Translations under genes and position numbers: made by a program
Part shown: in pieces, positions 9,202 through 13,855 of the stretch
Layout of the letters: every line of letters starts with the position of its first letter
Position numbering within the stretch: the first letter of the stretch is position 1
The notes under the pieces: model-generated
What the model was told of the DNA's origin: nothing
The model's database searches: none
What the model saw: the letters and a program-made list of their open reading frames with translations, nothing else
NCBI GenBank assembly: GCA_041548245.1
Contig: JBFESZ010000051.1
Span: forward strand, 1-13,855
Length of the DNA: 13,855 nt
Direction of reading: 5' to 3'
Origin: Sulfurimonadaceae bacterium
GTDB taxonomy: Bacteria > Campylobacterota > Campylobacteria > Campylobacterales > Sulfurimonadaceae

Positions 9202-10449
9202 ATGTCTACAAATTTTTATCTGGCCAGACAGCCGATCTTGGACAGAAAACAGAAGATTATCGGTTATGAACTTTTATATCGTGACAGTGAAAAGAGTGCT
9301 GATTATGCCAATGAACGTCATGCGACAGCGGCACTCTTGGTTAATGTCCTCAATCAGGCAGGTTTGAAAAATGTCGTGGGGGATGCTCTGGCCTTCGTCA
9401 ATATCGATGATAGCTTCTTGCGCCATGAGATCGTTAATACCATTCCTTCCAAAACCTTTATCTTTGAGATAACAAGCAGTAGTAATTTAGATGATCTGAC
9501 CGTCGAACGTATCGAAGTACTGCATAAAAAGGGTTATGAGTTCTGTCTGGATGCTGCCAACTCTGAGCATCTTTCCGAGTATAAAAAACTCTTTCCCTAT
9601 CTTAACTATTGTAAAATAGACACCGTTACTTTCGAGCAAAAGTTTATGGAAGAGATTGTCAACACACTCCATACGAATGGAATCAAAGCTATTGCCAACA
9701 AGGTAGAGACAGAAAAAGCATTTGAAACCTATCAAACACAAGGGTTTGATGCCTTTCAAGGGTACTATTTTGCTGAACCGAAGATCATTCAAGACAAGAA
9801 GTTTGAAGCAGACCAGGCTTCATTGTTCAAGCTGTGCAATCTCCTGCAGACCGGTGGTGATACGAGGGAGATCGTTCAATCGTTTGAGAGAAGTCCCAGT
9901 CTAACTCTGCAATTGCTGCGATTTATGAACTCGGCCGCTTTCCATTTCAAAAATCCTATTTCGTCTATCCAGCAGGTGATCACGCTTCTGGGAAGAAATG
10001 CCTTAAACCAGTGGCTTATGCTCCTTCTGTATTCTAAAACAGCTTCGGGAAAGGGGAGTTTTGACAATCCTCTGATCCTGATGGCCAAACATCGAACGGA
10101 CTTGATGGTCTCTCTTCTTAAAATGACCAAAAAGAACTGTACGATGGACGAGCAGAGTGAGGCCTATTTTGTGGGGATTCTCTCTTTGATGGATACCTTA
10201 TTGCATATGCCTTTAGAAAAGATCATCGATGAATTTTATGTGGAGGAGCGTGTCAAGAACGCACTGTTTAAGCAAGAGGGCATACTAGGAGAACTTTACC
10301 GTATTGTAATCGCTATCGAAAAATTTGAGACAGAAAAAATCGATGCACTTGTAGAAAAATATGCACTTGACCGCACAGAGTTTGAGACGATGATGCTTTC
10401 AAATATTCAAGCGTCCACAGAGTTCGCTAAGACCACTTTAAACGAATAG
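9202..10449 (+). CDS. EAL + HDOD domain protein (YuxH/PdeH/CdgJ-like architecture), EAL active site degenerate
   Basis: 415 aa. ARQPI...GYELLYR, FVN, YCKID, KVET, FQGYYF (EAL); SPSLTLQLLRFMNSAAF...ISSIQQVITLLG...YFVGILSLMDTLL (HDOD). Confidence 0.92.
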   Translation: MSTNFYLARQPILDRKQKIIGYELLYRDSEKSADYANERHATAALLVNVLNQAGLKNVVGDALAFVNIDDSFLRHEIVNTIPSKTFIFEITSSSNLDDLTVERIEVLHKKGYEFCLDAANSEHLSEYKKLFPYLNYCKIDTVTFEQKFMEEIVNTLHTNGIKAIANKVETEKAFETYQTQGFDAFQGYYFAEPKIIQDKKFEADQASLFKLCNLLQTGGDTREIVQSFERSPSLTLQLLRFMNSAAFHFKNPISSIQQVITLLGRNALNQWLMLLLYSKTASGKGSFDNPLILMAKHRTDLMVSLLKMTKKNCTMDEQSEAYFVGILSLMDTLLHMPLEKIIDEFYVEERVKNALFKQEGILGELYRIVIAIEKFETEKIDALVEKYALDRTEFETMMLSNIQASTEFAKTTLNE

Positions 10450-10451
10450 TA

Positions 10452-11534
10452 TCAGTTAAAGAGTCCAAGTCTATTCATGATAGGATCGATCCCAAGACCG
10501 GTCGTATCCTTTAAGTGTATTGTGTCATGCCGCATGTTGAACGGCTTAAGAAGAGGATGTTCTTGAAGATACAGGGGTGAGTCCAGATCGGCCATTGTGA
10601 TGTTTTTTTGAGAAAGGCCAAAATGTGCGGCAGCCACAAGGCTGATCGGCCCTTCAAGCATAGAGCCTATCATACAGTTTTTATCATATTTAACAGCCAG
10701 TTTTGCGATCTTTAAAGCTTCATATATTCCGCCACATTTCATCAGTTTGATATTTAACATATCTGCGATATCTTCATGAAGAAGTTTGAGAGCATCCTGG
10801 GTATTAAAGAGTGACTCATCTGCTAGAACAGGAATCAGTGAGTGCCGCTTTAGCTGTTTCATAGAGTCAAGGTCTTGGGCTGCAAAGGGTTGCTCAATAC
10901 ATTCGATATTGTCATTTCTTATGTGTGAGATCATCTTAAGGCATCCATCAAGCGTAAGGGATTGATTCGGATCCAAACGTAATGTATTGCCTTCATTCAA
11001 GACTTCGTTGATTCTTCTTAATCGCTCAATATTCGCGTCTATATCTTTATCAAGTTTAATTTTAAGGATATTGAACCCTTCATCAAGGGCAGTAAGGGTC
11101 TCATTCTGCATTTTCAACGGTTCATCTACCGAAATAGTCAGGTCTGTTTGAAGATCACAACGTTCTGAACCCAAAAATTGATGCAGACTCTGATTCTTTT
11201 GCTTGGCGAGAAGGTCAAACAGAGCAATGTCGACGCAGGCCATAGTCTCCGGGCTTATGTTCATGGCATGGAGCCGCTTGAAAATATCTTCTGCGTCCAT
11301 TGGATTGTGAATCAGTGAAGGAAAAACAGTGTGACTGAGCTCATTGACAACATCTTCGTTAGTCGTACCCGTTATGGCTGTAACAGCGCAGGCCTCTCCA
11401 TAACCGACAATTCCTGTATCCGTATGAACCTTTATGATGACATCCTTGACACAATCAACACGTCTTAGTGCTGTGATGAAAGGCTTTTTAAGAGGTAGTC
11501 TAAGTTCTGCTATATCAAAACCTGTGATTTTCAT
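10452..11534 (-). CDS. Dipeptide epimerase, L-Ala-D/L-Glu epimerase (YkfB/YcjG-like, enolase superfamily)
   Basis: LKIKL (KxK), LDPNQ, IEQP, ADES, NIKLMKCGG, GSMLE, and DLD motif typical of dipeptide epimerases. N-terminal PFITALR keeps the Arg seen in YkfB. Start moved to ATG 11534 (ATGA overlap with the DUF819 stop, AGGTGG RBS); 360 aa. Confidence 0.92.
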   Translation of the reverse strand: MKITGFDIAELRLPLKKPFITALRRVDCVKDVIIKVHTDTGIVGYGEACAVTAITGTTNEDVVNELSHTVFPSLIHNPMDAEDIFKRLHAMNISPETMACVDIALFDLLAKQKNQSLHQFLGSERCDLQTDLTISVDEPLKMQNETLTALDEGFNILKIKLDKDIDANIERLRRINEVLNEGNTLRLDPNQSLTLDGCLKMISHIRNDNIECIEQPFAAQDLDSMKQLKRHSLIPVLADESLFNTQDALKLLHEDIADMLNIKLMKCGGIYEALKIAKLAVKYDKNCMIGSMLEGPISLVAAAHFGLSQKNITMADLDSPLYLQEHPLLKPFNMRHDTIHLKDTTGLGIDPIMNRLGLFN

Positions 11535-12667
11535 GTCAGCCACCTGAGTACTTCCGTCAGTAAGAGGGCGGAAAAGGTACCGATGATATAACCGAGTGTC
11601 GCCATTAAGACACCGATGCCCACCAGGCTTTGTGCATAAGCAGCTGAAAGAATCGGTGCAGAAGCGATACCTCCGACATTGGCCAGGGATGCGACACAGA
11701 TACTGAAAAGGTCAAGTCTAAAGACTCTGGCGGAGAGCAGCATAAGCAGTGCGTGCATCAACAAGATACTCATACCAATGAGAATATAAAGTAGCAGTCC
11801 CATATCAAAATGGATATCGGCTCTGGAAGCAATCAAGGCAATCAAAAGATAGAGCATGGAGCCGGCCGTGGATTGCAGTCCTCGTATTTTGGCCAATGGG
11901 CTAAAGGAGAAGAGTACACCGGCAAGGGTAGCTAGAACAACTGACCAGGTTGTCGCTGTGCCAAAGAGATGCTGGGATAAAAAGATACCGCTGAGCTGAG
12001 TGATGATAGAAACGCCAATGGCTGAGAGAATAAGCCAGAAATAAGCACGATACGAGAAGTGCAGGGTGCATTGACTCTCCAAAGTAATATCCTCTACCGG
12101 ATTGGACGCTTTGGTATACCGGTTGAATTGTGGGGCATAAGGTACGAGCAGGAGCAGTAACATAACCCAAAGGCTATAATCGACCGAGTCGATGAGCATG
12201 ATAATGCCAACGGCATCCTCACTGCTTCCAACGACTGAAGTAACGGCTACCATATTAGCTGTCCCTCCCATCCAAGAACCTGCAAGCGGGGCTAGGATGG
12301 CAATGTCTGAATAGGAGAGATGAAAGAGCAAGAAGGAGAGAACAAACGCGATGAAAAGAGTAGCACTTGCAAGGAAAAAAGTCAGTAGCATCTTAGGGCC
12401 TAGTTTGACAAGCGCAGTGATTTTATGTGGAAGCAGCATCAGAAAAAGCATGGCAGGCAGCAGGTTGCTCTTGAGTGTGAGGTAGCTTTCCGTAATAGCT
12501 TCATTTTTTTCATACAGCCCCCAAGAGCTTAAAAGCATAACGGTTAAGTACAGCAGAACAATGGGTGGAAGGTATTGGAGGCTTTGATATTGCTGTTTGG
12601 ATAAAAAAAGAGCCAAGGCAGCCAATAGGCCCAAGCTGATAAGATAGAGGCTGGGATCTGTTATCAA
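11531..12667 (-). CDS. DUF819 family (YjcL-like) multi-pass membrane protein, putative transporter
   Basis: 378 aa, about 10-11 hydrophobic segments. LLPAMLFLMLL, LGPKML, AGSWMGGTANMVAV, SLANVGGIASAP and GYIIGT match DUF819 motifs. TTG start overlaps the amidase TGA (TTGA), with GAGG RBS. Confidence 0.87.
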   Translation of the reverse strand: MITDPSLYLISLGLLAALALFLSKQQYQSLQYLPPIVLLYLTVMLLSSWGLYEKNEAITESYLTLKSNLLPAMLFLMLLPHKITALVKLGPKMLLTFFLASATLFIAFVLSFLLFHLSYSDIAILAPLAGSWMGGTANMVAVTSVVGSSEDAVGIIMLIDSVDYSLWVMLLLLLVPYAPQFNRYTKASNPVEDITLESQCTLHFSYRAYFWLILSAIGVSIITQLSGIFLSQHLFGTATTWSVVLATLAGVLFSFSPLAKIRGLQSTAGSMLYLLIALIASRADIHFDMGLLLYILIGMSILLMHALLMLLSARVFRLDLFSICVASLANVGGIASAPILSAAYAQSLVGIGVLMATLGYIIGTFSALLLTEVLRWLT

Positions 12668-13314
12668 CGGATAGCCTCAGGTGAGCTTTTAAGCTCTGTA
12701 AAGTTTTGACGGATTTTTTGCATGAACCTATCTCCCGGGTCATGTTTGATCGTTCTGTATGATTCGTCCGTTTCAAGCCAAAGGTAGTGGTCTGAAAAAT
12801 CCGTATATTCATGATGACCAATAAGGTATTCAATGGTTGCATATTTTTCTTTTAGATAGGCCACCAACTCTATATTTGATTTGAGCTGTTCGGGTGTAAG
12901 ATTATCTTTGCTGTTTTTTCCTCCAACGTTTTCAATTCCGATAGAGCAATAGTTAAGACCTATGACATGTCGCGCCATGAGTGTCTCATCCATCAGCCTA
13001 TAAATACATCCATCCCTGTCGATAAGAAAATGAGCTGAAACATTCAAAGGCGAGGCTTCTTTGATATCAGGTCGGGTTGAGGCTAAAGTTGGTTTTTTGA
13101 AACACTGTATAGACTTATTGAGGTCATTCATTGTTGTCCAGTGTATGACTATGATACGTGGTGTTATATTGATGTCATCGACATTCAGATCATAATGCTC
13201 TTCAATGTACTTTTGAGTAAGGTCAATCCGGCGTTCATTAAAGATGATGCGCTTATCGACAATGGATATGGCAAAAAGATCATAGGCGATCAGTACAAGA
13301 AGAAAGAGTCTCAT
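12664..13314 (-). CDS. Secreted N-acetylmuramoyl-L-alanine amidase (Amidase_2/PGRP family)
   Basis: Signal peptide MRLFLLVLIAYDLFA. IVIHWT (Zn-His), VSAHFLIDRDG, ARHVIGLN, SIGIENVG (catalytic Glu), IGHHE (Zn-His), KHDPG (Zn-Asp). ATG 13314 overlaps the upstream TGA by 1 nt; the alternative start is TTG 13317. Confidence 0.92.
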   Translation of the reverse strand: MRLFLLVLIAYDLFAISIVDKRIIFNERRIDLTQKYIEEHYDLNVDDINITPRIIVIHWTTMNDLNKSIQCFKKPTLASTRPDIKEASPLNVSAHFLIDRDGCIYRLMDETLMARHVIGLNYCSIGIENVGGKNSKDNLTPEQLKSNIELVAYLKEKYATIEYLIGHHEYTDFSDHYLWLETDESYRTIKHDPGDRFMQKIRQNFTELKSSPEAIR

Positions 13315-13855
13315 CAAACACCCCTTATGACAATTTTTGAGATTTCACTTGGTGCAAGCACGCGTATAGGAGGACCCCAATATCCAGCTCCACGGCTTAC
13401 GAATATTTTCTGCTCGCTGGTATGTTGGTAGAGACCGGAAAGATAAGGCTGATCGATCATCACCAGAAGACCAAAGGGAAAGATCTGGCCACCATGCGTA
13501 TGTCCGCTCAGCATCAGATCACAGGGCATGTTTTCAAGTCTGAGGATTGTTTTGGGCTGATGGGCTAGGACTAAAGTCGGCAAGGAAGGCTCAATACCCT
13601 GATAGGACTTTTCTATGTCAATGGGATACTCACCGATTCTCTCGCCAATGACATCTGTCATTCCCACCAAATTAAAGCTGACTTCATTTGTTTCTATGCG
13701 GACATTTTCATTAAGCAAAACCCTTATACCAAGGGTTTTTACATAGGCAATAGTGGCATTGGCACCGTGAAAATACTCATGGTTTCCCAAAATAAAATAA
13801 CACGGAGCTGAGATGTCTTTTAAAGGCTTTAGATCTTCTTTGATTTTGTCTAGAT
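13314..13855 (-). CDS. YkuE/YaeI-like metallophosphoesterase (calcineurin-like), 5' end outside the window
   Basis: The frame stays open to the window edge (LDKIKEDLKPLKDISAPCYFILGNHE...). Motifs GNHE, LLNE, LAHQP, LSGHTHGGQ, VSRGAGYWGPPIR. Confidence 0.9.
   Translation of the reverse strand, partial: LDKIKEDLKPLKDISAPCYFILGNHEYFHGANATIAYVKTLGIRVLLNENVRIETNEVSFNLVGMTDVIGERIGEYPIDIEKSYQGIEPSLPTLVLAHQPKTILRLENMPCDLMLSGHTHGGQIFPFGLLVMIDQPYLSGLYQHTSEQKIFVSRGAGYWGPPIRVLAPSEISKIVIRGV

Follow-up and report, generated by a model that had tools for sequence, protein, structure and literature searches.

A DUF819 membrane protein encoded between a predicted secreted amidase and a dipeptide epimerase: a candidate carrier for murein-peptide salvage in Campylobacterales

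Introduction

How might the peptides of the cell wall be regained in a bacterium in whose genome the classical import and re-use genes are not found? The question is raised by a chain of overlapping genes in a marine, sulfur-oxidising Sulfurimonadaceae bacterium (NCBI GenBank assembly GCA_041548245.1) that encodes an Amidase_2 protein, a DUF819 membrane protein and an enolase-superfamily dipeptide epimerase. The window, that is, the whole stretch of DNA analysed here, is the complete 13,855-base contig C51 (JBFESZ010000051.1) of a 2.16-Mb metagenome-assembled genome (95.95% complete, 5.67% contamination). The nearest named relatives of its proteins come from metagenome-assembled genomes of Sulfurimonas, Sulfurimonadaceae, Arcobacter and Sulfurovum. 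The original prediction, made from the DNA letters, saw in the operon a minimal three-gene module for salvage of peptidoglycan stem peptides, in which the DUF819 protein imports the product of an extracytoplasmic step for use by a cytoplasmic one. To our knowledge, it is only for import by AmpG, Opp-MppA or YejBEF that the recycling of cell-wall material has been mapped well.

Here the three proteins, the relatives of their genes and the rest of the genome were examined by sequence and structure comparison. The results support the DUF819 protein as a candidate importer and point to L-Ala-D-Glu, a dipeptide, as its likely cargo.

Results

The DUF819 protein resembles secondary carboxylate carriers in its modelled fold

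The window protein matches the DUF819 profile (PF05684) with 226 bits (cut-off 27) over profile positions 6–377 of 379; a search for the family found 1065 cluster representatives at E ≤ 0.001. Its AlphaFold2 model, with a predicted local distance difference test score (pLDDT) of 94.1, consists of ten long transmembrane helices and two re-entrant helical hairpins. The hairpins carry the glycine-rich, family-conserved motifs GSWMGGTANM (residues 130–139) and ASLANVGGIASAP (residues 326–338). The best Foldseek matches of the model were CitS Na+/citrate symporters (5a1s, template modelling score 0.67); Na+/H+ antiporters and AspT, an Asp:Ala exchanger, came next. This result agrees with PMC8396727, which assigns DUF819 to the re-entrant CPA/AT fold, with Glt_symporter (the glutamate:Na+ symporter) as its neighbour, and predicts an N-out topology. 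CitS, a 2-hydroxycarboxylate transporter, and GltS have the same fold of ten helices, two glycine-rich re-entrant hairpins and inverted repeats, whereas DUF819 is only 12–16% identical to them, forms a separate Pfam family and has one helix fewer than CitS (PMC8396727). Together, the modelled fold and its matches mark the window protein as a predicted secondary carrier, of a type whose members transport small carboxylates.

DUF819 relatives adjoin epimerases and secreted peptidases in many phyla

DUF819 loci were located in one genome per species with a nine-sequence alignment as query, which gave 596 confirmed loci. The neighbourhood counts given here concern the best 80 of these, with 40–77% identity (79 with a DUF819 gene model), and apply to the DUF819 subfamily at least about 40% identical to the window protein. 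Neighbours were called as crude open reading frames and labelled by phmmer; the remainder was clustered and the clusters were named by Pfam.

The 79 loci span at least nine phylum- or class-level groups. A dipeptide epimerase lies within three genes on either side of DUF819 in 51 of them, on the same strand in 48 and directly downstream in 29. Only one more epimerase appears further out (52 of 80 loci when the whole locus is counted). By our own open-reading-frame starts, 20 of the 29 adjacent DUF819-epimerase pairs overlap or abut. A protein of about 470 residues with SH3_6 and NlpC/P60 domains is found within the same distance in 15 of the 79 loci, and 14 of these 15 peptidases carry a leader or lipobox. 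Either or both partners are present in 57 of the 79 loci, in 38 of the 47 loci with at least three genes called on both sides, and in 24 of the 30 outside Campylobacterota. The linked groups outside that phylum are Clostridia and relatives, Alteromonadales, Psychrobacter, three alphaproteobacterial genera, Synergistota, Spirochaetia, Desulfobacterales, Wallbacteria and Riflebacteria. In 58 linked DUF819 proteins, the hairpin motifs GSWMGGTxNM and VASLANIGGVASAPIL are nearly invariant. DUF819 relatives are thus strongly enriched beside dipeptide epimerases and secreted endopeptidases for the bond between γ-D-Glu and diaminopimelate (A2pm), the association that an importer of murein peptides, as originally predicted, would lead one to look for. 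The amidase adjoins DUF819 in eight loci (8/79), always directly upstream and in Campylobacterota only; a Peptidase_M20 gene is nearby in seven (7/79).

Beyond this subfamily, 16 distant DUF819 loci were taken from a 301-genome Bacillota-side sample. A Peptidase_M19 gene (membrane dipeptidase family) adjoins DUF819 in four of the 16 (L141, L142, L144 and one other), which hints at dipeptide import as a wider theme of the family. Neisseria meningitidis carries an M15 peptidase-DUF819 gene pair (PMC12671195).

A 108-residue DUF3870 protein stands beside DUF819 in seven of the 79 loci (L075:8187-8513 and six others, in Clostridia and Psychrobacter), usually between DUF819 and the epimerase. It could represent a component of the module that has so far gone unnoticed in these lineages.

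The three genes co-occur within Campylobacterales, and DUF819 is fused to hydrolases

Co-occurrence was counted in an even set of 201 Campylobacterales genomes, which as relatives are not independent of one another. A full DUF819 gene is present in 30 of them, and all 30 have the epimerase; 167 have neither. The epimerase without DUF819 was seen in four genomes, two of these copies being partial or stop-interrupted and a third lying in a 74%-complete genome. Of 24 genomes with an amidase orthologue, 23 also hold DUF819 and the epimerase, the amidase being encoded elsewhere on the chromosome in 11 of the 23.

Two proteins, P0158 (among the 50%-identity representatives) and P0270 (from the 90% library), combine DUF819 with SH3_6 and NlpC/P60 domains in a single chain. 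This fusion is taken to be real because the two proteins agree at 63% identity from end to end, the junction included. A search for longer DUF819 proteins gave only one further fusion. Of another make-up is P0269 (827 residues), which consists of a lipobox leader, a Beta-lactamase-family domain (PF00144) and a DUF819 domain of the 'GSQANIGG' type, a layout that would fit an N-out topology, with a hydrolase outside the cytoplasm feeding the carrier.

Open frames of 444–882 residues that cross amidase, DUF819 or epimerase matches were also seen in four genomes (G003, G103, G142 and G116). They probably reflect read-through of the same stop/start overlaps as those of the window (see below); true fusions are possible.

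The epimerase retains the residues of dipeptide epimerases

The closest relatives of the epimerase in the PDB are dipeptide epimerases, namely 3jva (1.7e-60) and Bacillus subtilis YkfB (1jpm/1tkk, 2.9e-58). Residues K158/K160, D188, E214, D239 and K263 align with K160/K162, D191, E219, D244 and K268 of YkfB, and the protein also retains R24 and the DxD pair D316/D318 (D321/D323 in YkfB). In YkfB the DxD pair is described as binding the ammonium group of the dipeptide and Arg24 as binding the substrate carboxylate (bioRxiv 10.1101/2022.05.01.490185); residue roles in dipeptide epimerases are also described in PMC5808125. R24, the DxD pair and the catalytic set are intact in 47 of 47 epimerases, comprising the window protein and all 46 DUF819-linked ones of at least 300 residues (five linked epimerases that are shorter than this or cut were left out of the count). 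No leader was found in the window epimerase or at any of 12 epimerase N-termini inspected. The intact catalytic motifs and missing signal peptide given in the original prediction are therefore borne out.

Because the substrate differs among dipeptide epimerases, specificity for L-Ala-D-Glu is read here from R24 together with the genomic context; the enzyme probably acts on L-Ala-D/L-Glu.

The amidase is predicted to be exported

The amidase scores 76.7 bits against Amidase_2 (PF01510; gathering cut-off 26) and is the sole match to this family in a profile search of its genome. Its AlphaFold2 model (pLDDT 78.3) gave as top Foldseek matches Amidase_2 endolysins, AmpD, T7 lysozyme, peptidoglycan recognition proteins (PGRPs) and AmiD, with E values down to 3e-7; the alignment to T7 lysozyme spans residues 85–172 only. 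An AmpD-like sequence pattern (VSAHFLI, GHHE, KHDPG) is present, and each of 15 orthologues keeps H58, H116, E128, H167, K190 and D192 unchanged. We take H58, H167 and D192 to be the zinc ligands and E128 and K190 to be catalytic, presuming their equivalence with those of AmpD. The protein is not an AmpD equivalog by NF008758 (31.9 bits, cut-off 143), and it bears a leader-like N-terminus.

The amidase begins with MRLFLLVLIAYDLFA followed by IS, where hydropathy over 12 residues reaches a maximum of 2.5 (a heuristic value only). All 15 orthologues start with a stretch of this kind, short, basic and hydrophobic, whose last residue is A or S. On this leader heuristic and alignment the leader is predicted to be cleavable and the amidase to be exported to the periplasm. 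The H/H/D ligand set of the original prediction thus stands, the three residues being invariant, and its signal peptide stands as a heuristic reading.

A second periplasmic cut may be supplied from elsewhere in the genome

No enzyme cutting the γ-D-Glu-diaminopimelate bond was found among the open reading frames of the window operon searched against Pfam. The genome as a whole has three NlpC/P60 (PF00877) matches: a 456-residue lipoprotein on contig C81, a 153-residue lipoprotein on C37 and a contig-end fragment on C130. The C81 lipoprotein matches DvLysin of Desulfovibrio vulgaris (PDB 3M1U) at 3.9e-78 and holds YGWG, RDCS, PRNS, GEGYPFD and GH, the motifs given for DvLysin orthologues in PMC4600125. 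There, DvLysin is described as a lipoprotein that cuts γ-D-Glu-A2pm in peptidoglycan, muropeptides, N-acetylmuramic acid (MurNAc)-peptides and free tetrapeptide, and Helicobacter pylori HP0087 is named as an orthologue. DvLysin orthologues occur in 115 of the 201 Campylobacterales genomes, among them every one of the 30 that have DUF819; as a widespread gene of housekeeping type, it thus has no specificity for the module.

The C130 fragment (G000:C130:3235-3936, minus strand) is a partial second DvLysin-like gene at a contig end, 68% identical to the C81 copy; a TAG occurs within the matching region. Its presence might be due to paralogy, to differences between strains or to contamination of the assembled genome.

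No Peptidase_M14 (PF00246) match was found in the genome. Trimming by a Csd4/Pgp1-type M14 enzyme was considered as a source of dipeptide stems and was dropped because of this result, which comes from a model that may miss divergent Csd4 relatives.

Searches of the 95.95%-complete genome gave no match for AmpG (TIGR00901), LdcA (PF02016), AnmK (PF03702) or NagZ (family-3 glycosidase, PF00933), and the best score for Mpl (TIGR01081) was 88 bits where 388.7 are required. By these five proteins the genome falls outside the AmpG-AmpD-Mpl recycling pathway, and the E. coli route of sugar and tripeptide re-use therefore appears to be missing. What the window pathway seems to do instead is to regain Ala and Glu by catabolism, and the genome has two M20 peptidase genes that could be the source of the final dipeptidase.

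The genes form an overlapping chain at one end of the window

Four minus-strand genes, encoding a metallophosphoesterase, the amidase, the DUF819 protein and the epimerase, are linked without a break (Table 1). Direct reading confirmed the two stop/start overlaps on which the three-gene chain had been proposed and added a fourth overlapped gene: the phosphoesterase stop codon TGA (13314–13316) has its A in common with the amidase ATG (TGATG).

Table 1. Genes, leader and overlaps of the chain, in window coordinates
Feature	Position	Strand	Basis or remark
YaeI/LpxG-like metallophosphoesterase, 3' part, 179 aa	13314..13853	-	Metallophos E 1.2e-5; truncated at contig end
Amidase_2 protein, 216 aa, ATG at 13314	12664..13314	-	Pfam E 2.7e-21
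Amidase leader MRLFLLVLIAYDLFA, residues 1-15, signal-peptide-like	13270..13314	-	Hydropathy heuristic and alignment
DUF819 membrane protein, 378 aa, TTG start	11531..12667	-	Pfam E 9.3e-67
Enolase-superfamily dipeptide epimerase, 360 aa, ATG start	10452..11534	-	MR_MLE_C 1.5e-44, MR_MLE_N 1.6e-14
TTGA overlap, DUF819 TTG start and amidase TGA stop	12664..12667	-	Direct sequence reading
ATGA overlap, epimerase ATG start and DUF819 TGA stop	11531..11534	-	Direct sequence reading

An in-frame TTG is also present three bases upstream of the amidase ATG. The DUF819 start is supported by homologues, which retain M1-I2. The automatic call prolongs the epimerase to a GTG at 11543; the start assigned here is supported because the PDB epimerases align from the methionine at 11534. 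Purine-rich GGGG, GAGG and AGGTGG stand 7–14 nucleotides upstream of the amidase, DUF819 and epimerase starts. Within the chain, nine promoter-like sites (8.0 ± 2.6 in shuffled sequences) and one terminator-like site (3.0 ± 1.6) were counted, with no excess of either. Among sequencing runs listed as containing this stretch there was no RNA run and one marine metagenome DNA run, probably that of the source sample.

The phosphoesterase scores 95 bits against NF008460 (YaeI), under the cut-off of 188. Among relatives, just the four closest (L032–L035) keep it upstream of the amidase, and in these it is preceded by a MoCF_biosynth gene. It has no evident link to the pathway and is clearly not a conserved partner.

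Discussion

A proposed route for murein dipeptides and its strength

The findings can be arranged into a route from wall to cytoplasm. In the periplasm, the DvLysin-type lipoprotein encoded elsewhere would cut the γ-D-Glu-diaminopimelate bond and the operon's amidase the MurNAc-L-Ala bond; made in either order, the two cuts would release free L-Ala-D-Glu. This dicarboxylic dipeptide would be imported by DUF819 acting as a CitS/GltS-like secondary carrier, probably coupled to Na+ or H+. The cytoplasmic epimerase would turn it into L-Ala-L-Glu, which an ordinary dipeptidase could split into alanine and glutamate. The dipeptide is preferred as cargo because an endopeptidase and an amidase that both act outside would give periplasmic L-Ala-D-Glu, which needs an epimerase inside; its size and two carboxylates would also suit a CitS-like carrier. 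We consider that the operon probably serves murein-peptide salvage by this sequence of two periplasmic cuts, dipeptide import, epimerisation and dipeptide hydrolysis.

In this form the route departs from the original prediction. The role of DUF819 as importer between the two compartments gains from the neighbourhoods, co-occurrence, fusions and carboxylate-transporter fold, and the cargo is amended to L-Ala-D-Glu. The description as a minimal three-gene module did not hold, since the step that makes the dipeptide lies outside the operon, on C81, a dipeptidase is needed as well, and a fourth overlapped gene lies upstream.

Several observations weigh against this route or parts of it. The epimerase falls under the NCBIfam equivalog cut-offs (NF041118, 188 of 500 bits; NF011708, 111 of 343 bits) and is therefore filed as a dipeptide epimerase and not as a proven equivalog. 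According to PMC5808125, the substrates of such enzymes vary, the Thermotoga enzyme preferring L-Ala-D/L-Phe, Tyr and His. Completeness of 95.95% and contamination of 5.67% mean that a gene not found in the genome is not necessarily absent from the organism. One SBP_bac_5 gene, an Opp-type binding protein, is present, so Opp/Dpp-type uptake is possible in this genome; the originally claimed independence of AmpG and Opp accordingly finds support for AmpG, which like an above-cut-off Mpl was not found, and not for Opp. The only basis for the N-out topology of the window DUF819 is the count of loop lysines and arginines, eight inside against three outside. In both P0158 and P0270 a further hydrophobic segment follows DUF819 and precedes the peptidase; these fusions therefore do not tell the side of the peptidase, and tripeptide import would be favoured if the peptidase were cytoplasmic. 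Neither linked gene is seen in 22 of the 79 loci, partly owing to short contigs. At the 16 distant Bacillota-side loci no epimerase is nearby and the hairpin motifs differ, so the DUF819 family is not monofunctional and the association belongs to one subfamily.

Alternative readings

The amidase acting alone would free whole stem peptides, and DUF819 might then import tri- or tetrapeptides that are trimmed to L-Ala-D-Glu inside the cell, a reading near that of the original prediction. Such trimming has a parallel in B. subtilis YkfC, which is described as having no signal peptide (PMC2954226), and it could also be accommodated by P0158 and P0270: if the DUF819 C-terminus were outside, their extra segment would place the peptidase in the cytoplasm. 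The genome, however, yielded no cytoplasmic γ-D-Glu-A2pm peptidase, Peptidase_M14 or LdcA; of its three NlpC/P60 matches, one is a fragment at a contig end and the two complete proteins are lipoproteins. The leaders on 14 of 15 linked NlpC/P60 proteins, and a CitS-like fold that carries small carboxylates, argue in the same direction. Import of longer stem peptides is thus unlikely, and the import of L-Ala-D-Glu is preferred.

That preference would also fail if DUF819 carried another small acid or dipeptide, such as D-Glu, L-Glu, another L-Xaa-D-Xaa or a MurNAc-derived acid, with the epimerase preferring a different dipeptide and the system scavenging D-amino-acid peptides in general. The sub-cut-off epimerase scores and the variable specificity of the dipeptide-epimerase subgroup leave room for this, as do the other enzymes that adjoin other DUF819 subfamilies (Peptidase_M19 in 4 of 16 distant Bacillota loci; M15 in N. 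meningitidis, PMC12671195). Set against them are the invariance of R24 and the DxD pair in all 47 epimerases and the murein-specific nature of the recurrent partners, Amidase_2 and γ-D-Glu-A2pm endopeptidases. On balance we find a different cargo improbable.

Adjacency without a shared pathway, or export instead of import, is very hard to credit: we infer the direction of transport, and the phosphoesterase is overlapped just as closely though clearly no conserved partner, yet the genes stay linked in many phyla, all 30 genomes with DUF819 also have the epimerase, two conserved fusions exist, and secreted partners lie on one side of the carrier with a cytoplasmic partner on the other.

Comparison with known systems

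The chemistry proposed after the amidase is the same as in B. subtilis ykfABCD (beside dpp), E. coli mpaA-ycjG with PepD, and Bacteroides BT1313-BT1314, for which cleavage of the bond between γ-D-Glu and the diamino acid, epimerisation of L-Ala-D-Glu by a YkfB/YcjG-type enzyme and dipeptide hydrolysis are described (PMC2954226, PMC4600125, PMC5808125). Those systems use ABC (ATP-binding cassette) or unidentified permeases, whereas the window operon has a predicted secondary carrier, DUF819, inside it; PMC2954226 speaks of 'an unidentified permease' for murein peptide uptake, and the oligopeptide permease BT1086 is proposed in PMC4600125. The window operon also links an Amidase_2 enzyme in place of the endopeptidase of ykfABCD-type clusters, and no LD-carboxypeptidase was found in the genome. 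An epimerase beside a peptidase for γ-D-Glu-diamino acid bonds, the arrangement of the ykfABCD and mpaA-ycjG clusters, is not seen in the window and occurs in 15 of the 79 relatives' loci. The γ-D-Glu-A2pm cut missing from the operon would be supplied by the DvLysin-like C81 lipoprotein, whose gene is unlinked here.

The window amidase has the Amidase_2/PGRP fold in common with E. coli AmiD, Pseudomonas aeruginosa AmpDh2 and AmpDh3, and cytoplasmic AmpD. It is much shorter than AmiD (216 against about 256 residues, chains matched), has no lipobox, and carries its own conserved N-terminal extension of 40 residues.

In physiological terms, the proposed role of DUF819 would fill the slot of AmpG, Opp-MppA and YejBEF-YepA, namely the return of wall turnover products; YejBEF-YepA is described as a muropeptide importer in PMC9790009. 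These are major facilitator superfamily or ABC systems that take up anhydromuropeptides, or tripeptide for re-use by Mpl, whereas the window route would be catabolic and lead to Ala and Glu.

The open literature, supplements excluded, was searched, and no paper was found that gives a substrate for DUF819 (YjcL, PF05684/COG5505) or links it to murein peptides. What is new in the window is a Campylobacterales form of the system in which a predicted secreted Amidase_2 is the linked extracytoplasmic enzyme, together with the three-way co-occurrence and the link to a DvLysin orthologue. A broader proposal would be that the DUF819 subfamily with GSWMGGTxNM and VASLANIGGVASAPIL is the missing L-Ala-D-Glu permease, elevator-type and ion-coupled, from Campylobacterota to Clostridia and alphaproteobacteria, and that the wider family serves small D-amino-acid-containing products of cell-wall breakdown; in our judgement this proposal could equally well hold or fail.

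If true, the proposed route would assign to a widespread uncharacterised domain a substrate that can be tested, and bring a new transporter fold into peptidoglycan salvage. It would mean that chemolithoautotrophic Campylobacterales without the classical pathway still regain alanine and glutamate from their wall, and DUF819 of this subfamily together with an epimerase and a secreted amidase or endopeptidase would serve as a genomic marker. Land plants are described as having L-Ala-D/L-Glu epimerase genes of bacterial origin (PMC3605383) and DUF819 (YjcL-like) genes (PMC6121227); a role of the DUF819 family for cell-wall breakdown products could explain why they keep both.

Other neighbouring genes

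RNase_T/ExoX, DUF4139, patatin, NhaA, DEAD helicase and PLD genes recur near DUF819 in Campylobacterota; considered as pathway partners, they were set aside because they appear to reflect lineage synteny. In one genus, a 356-residue neighbour resembles by its N-terminus what we take to be IspG. In the window, a gene with EAL and HDOD domains (9202–10449, plus strand) lies tail to tail with the epimerase, its end two bases away from that gene's stop codon (10452, minus strand), a gap too short to hold a terminator; in one of the closest relatives (L032) the same gene occupies this position.

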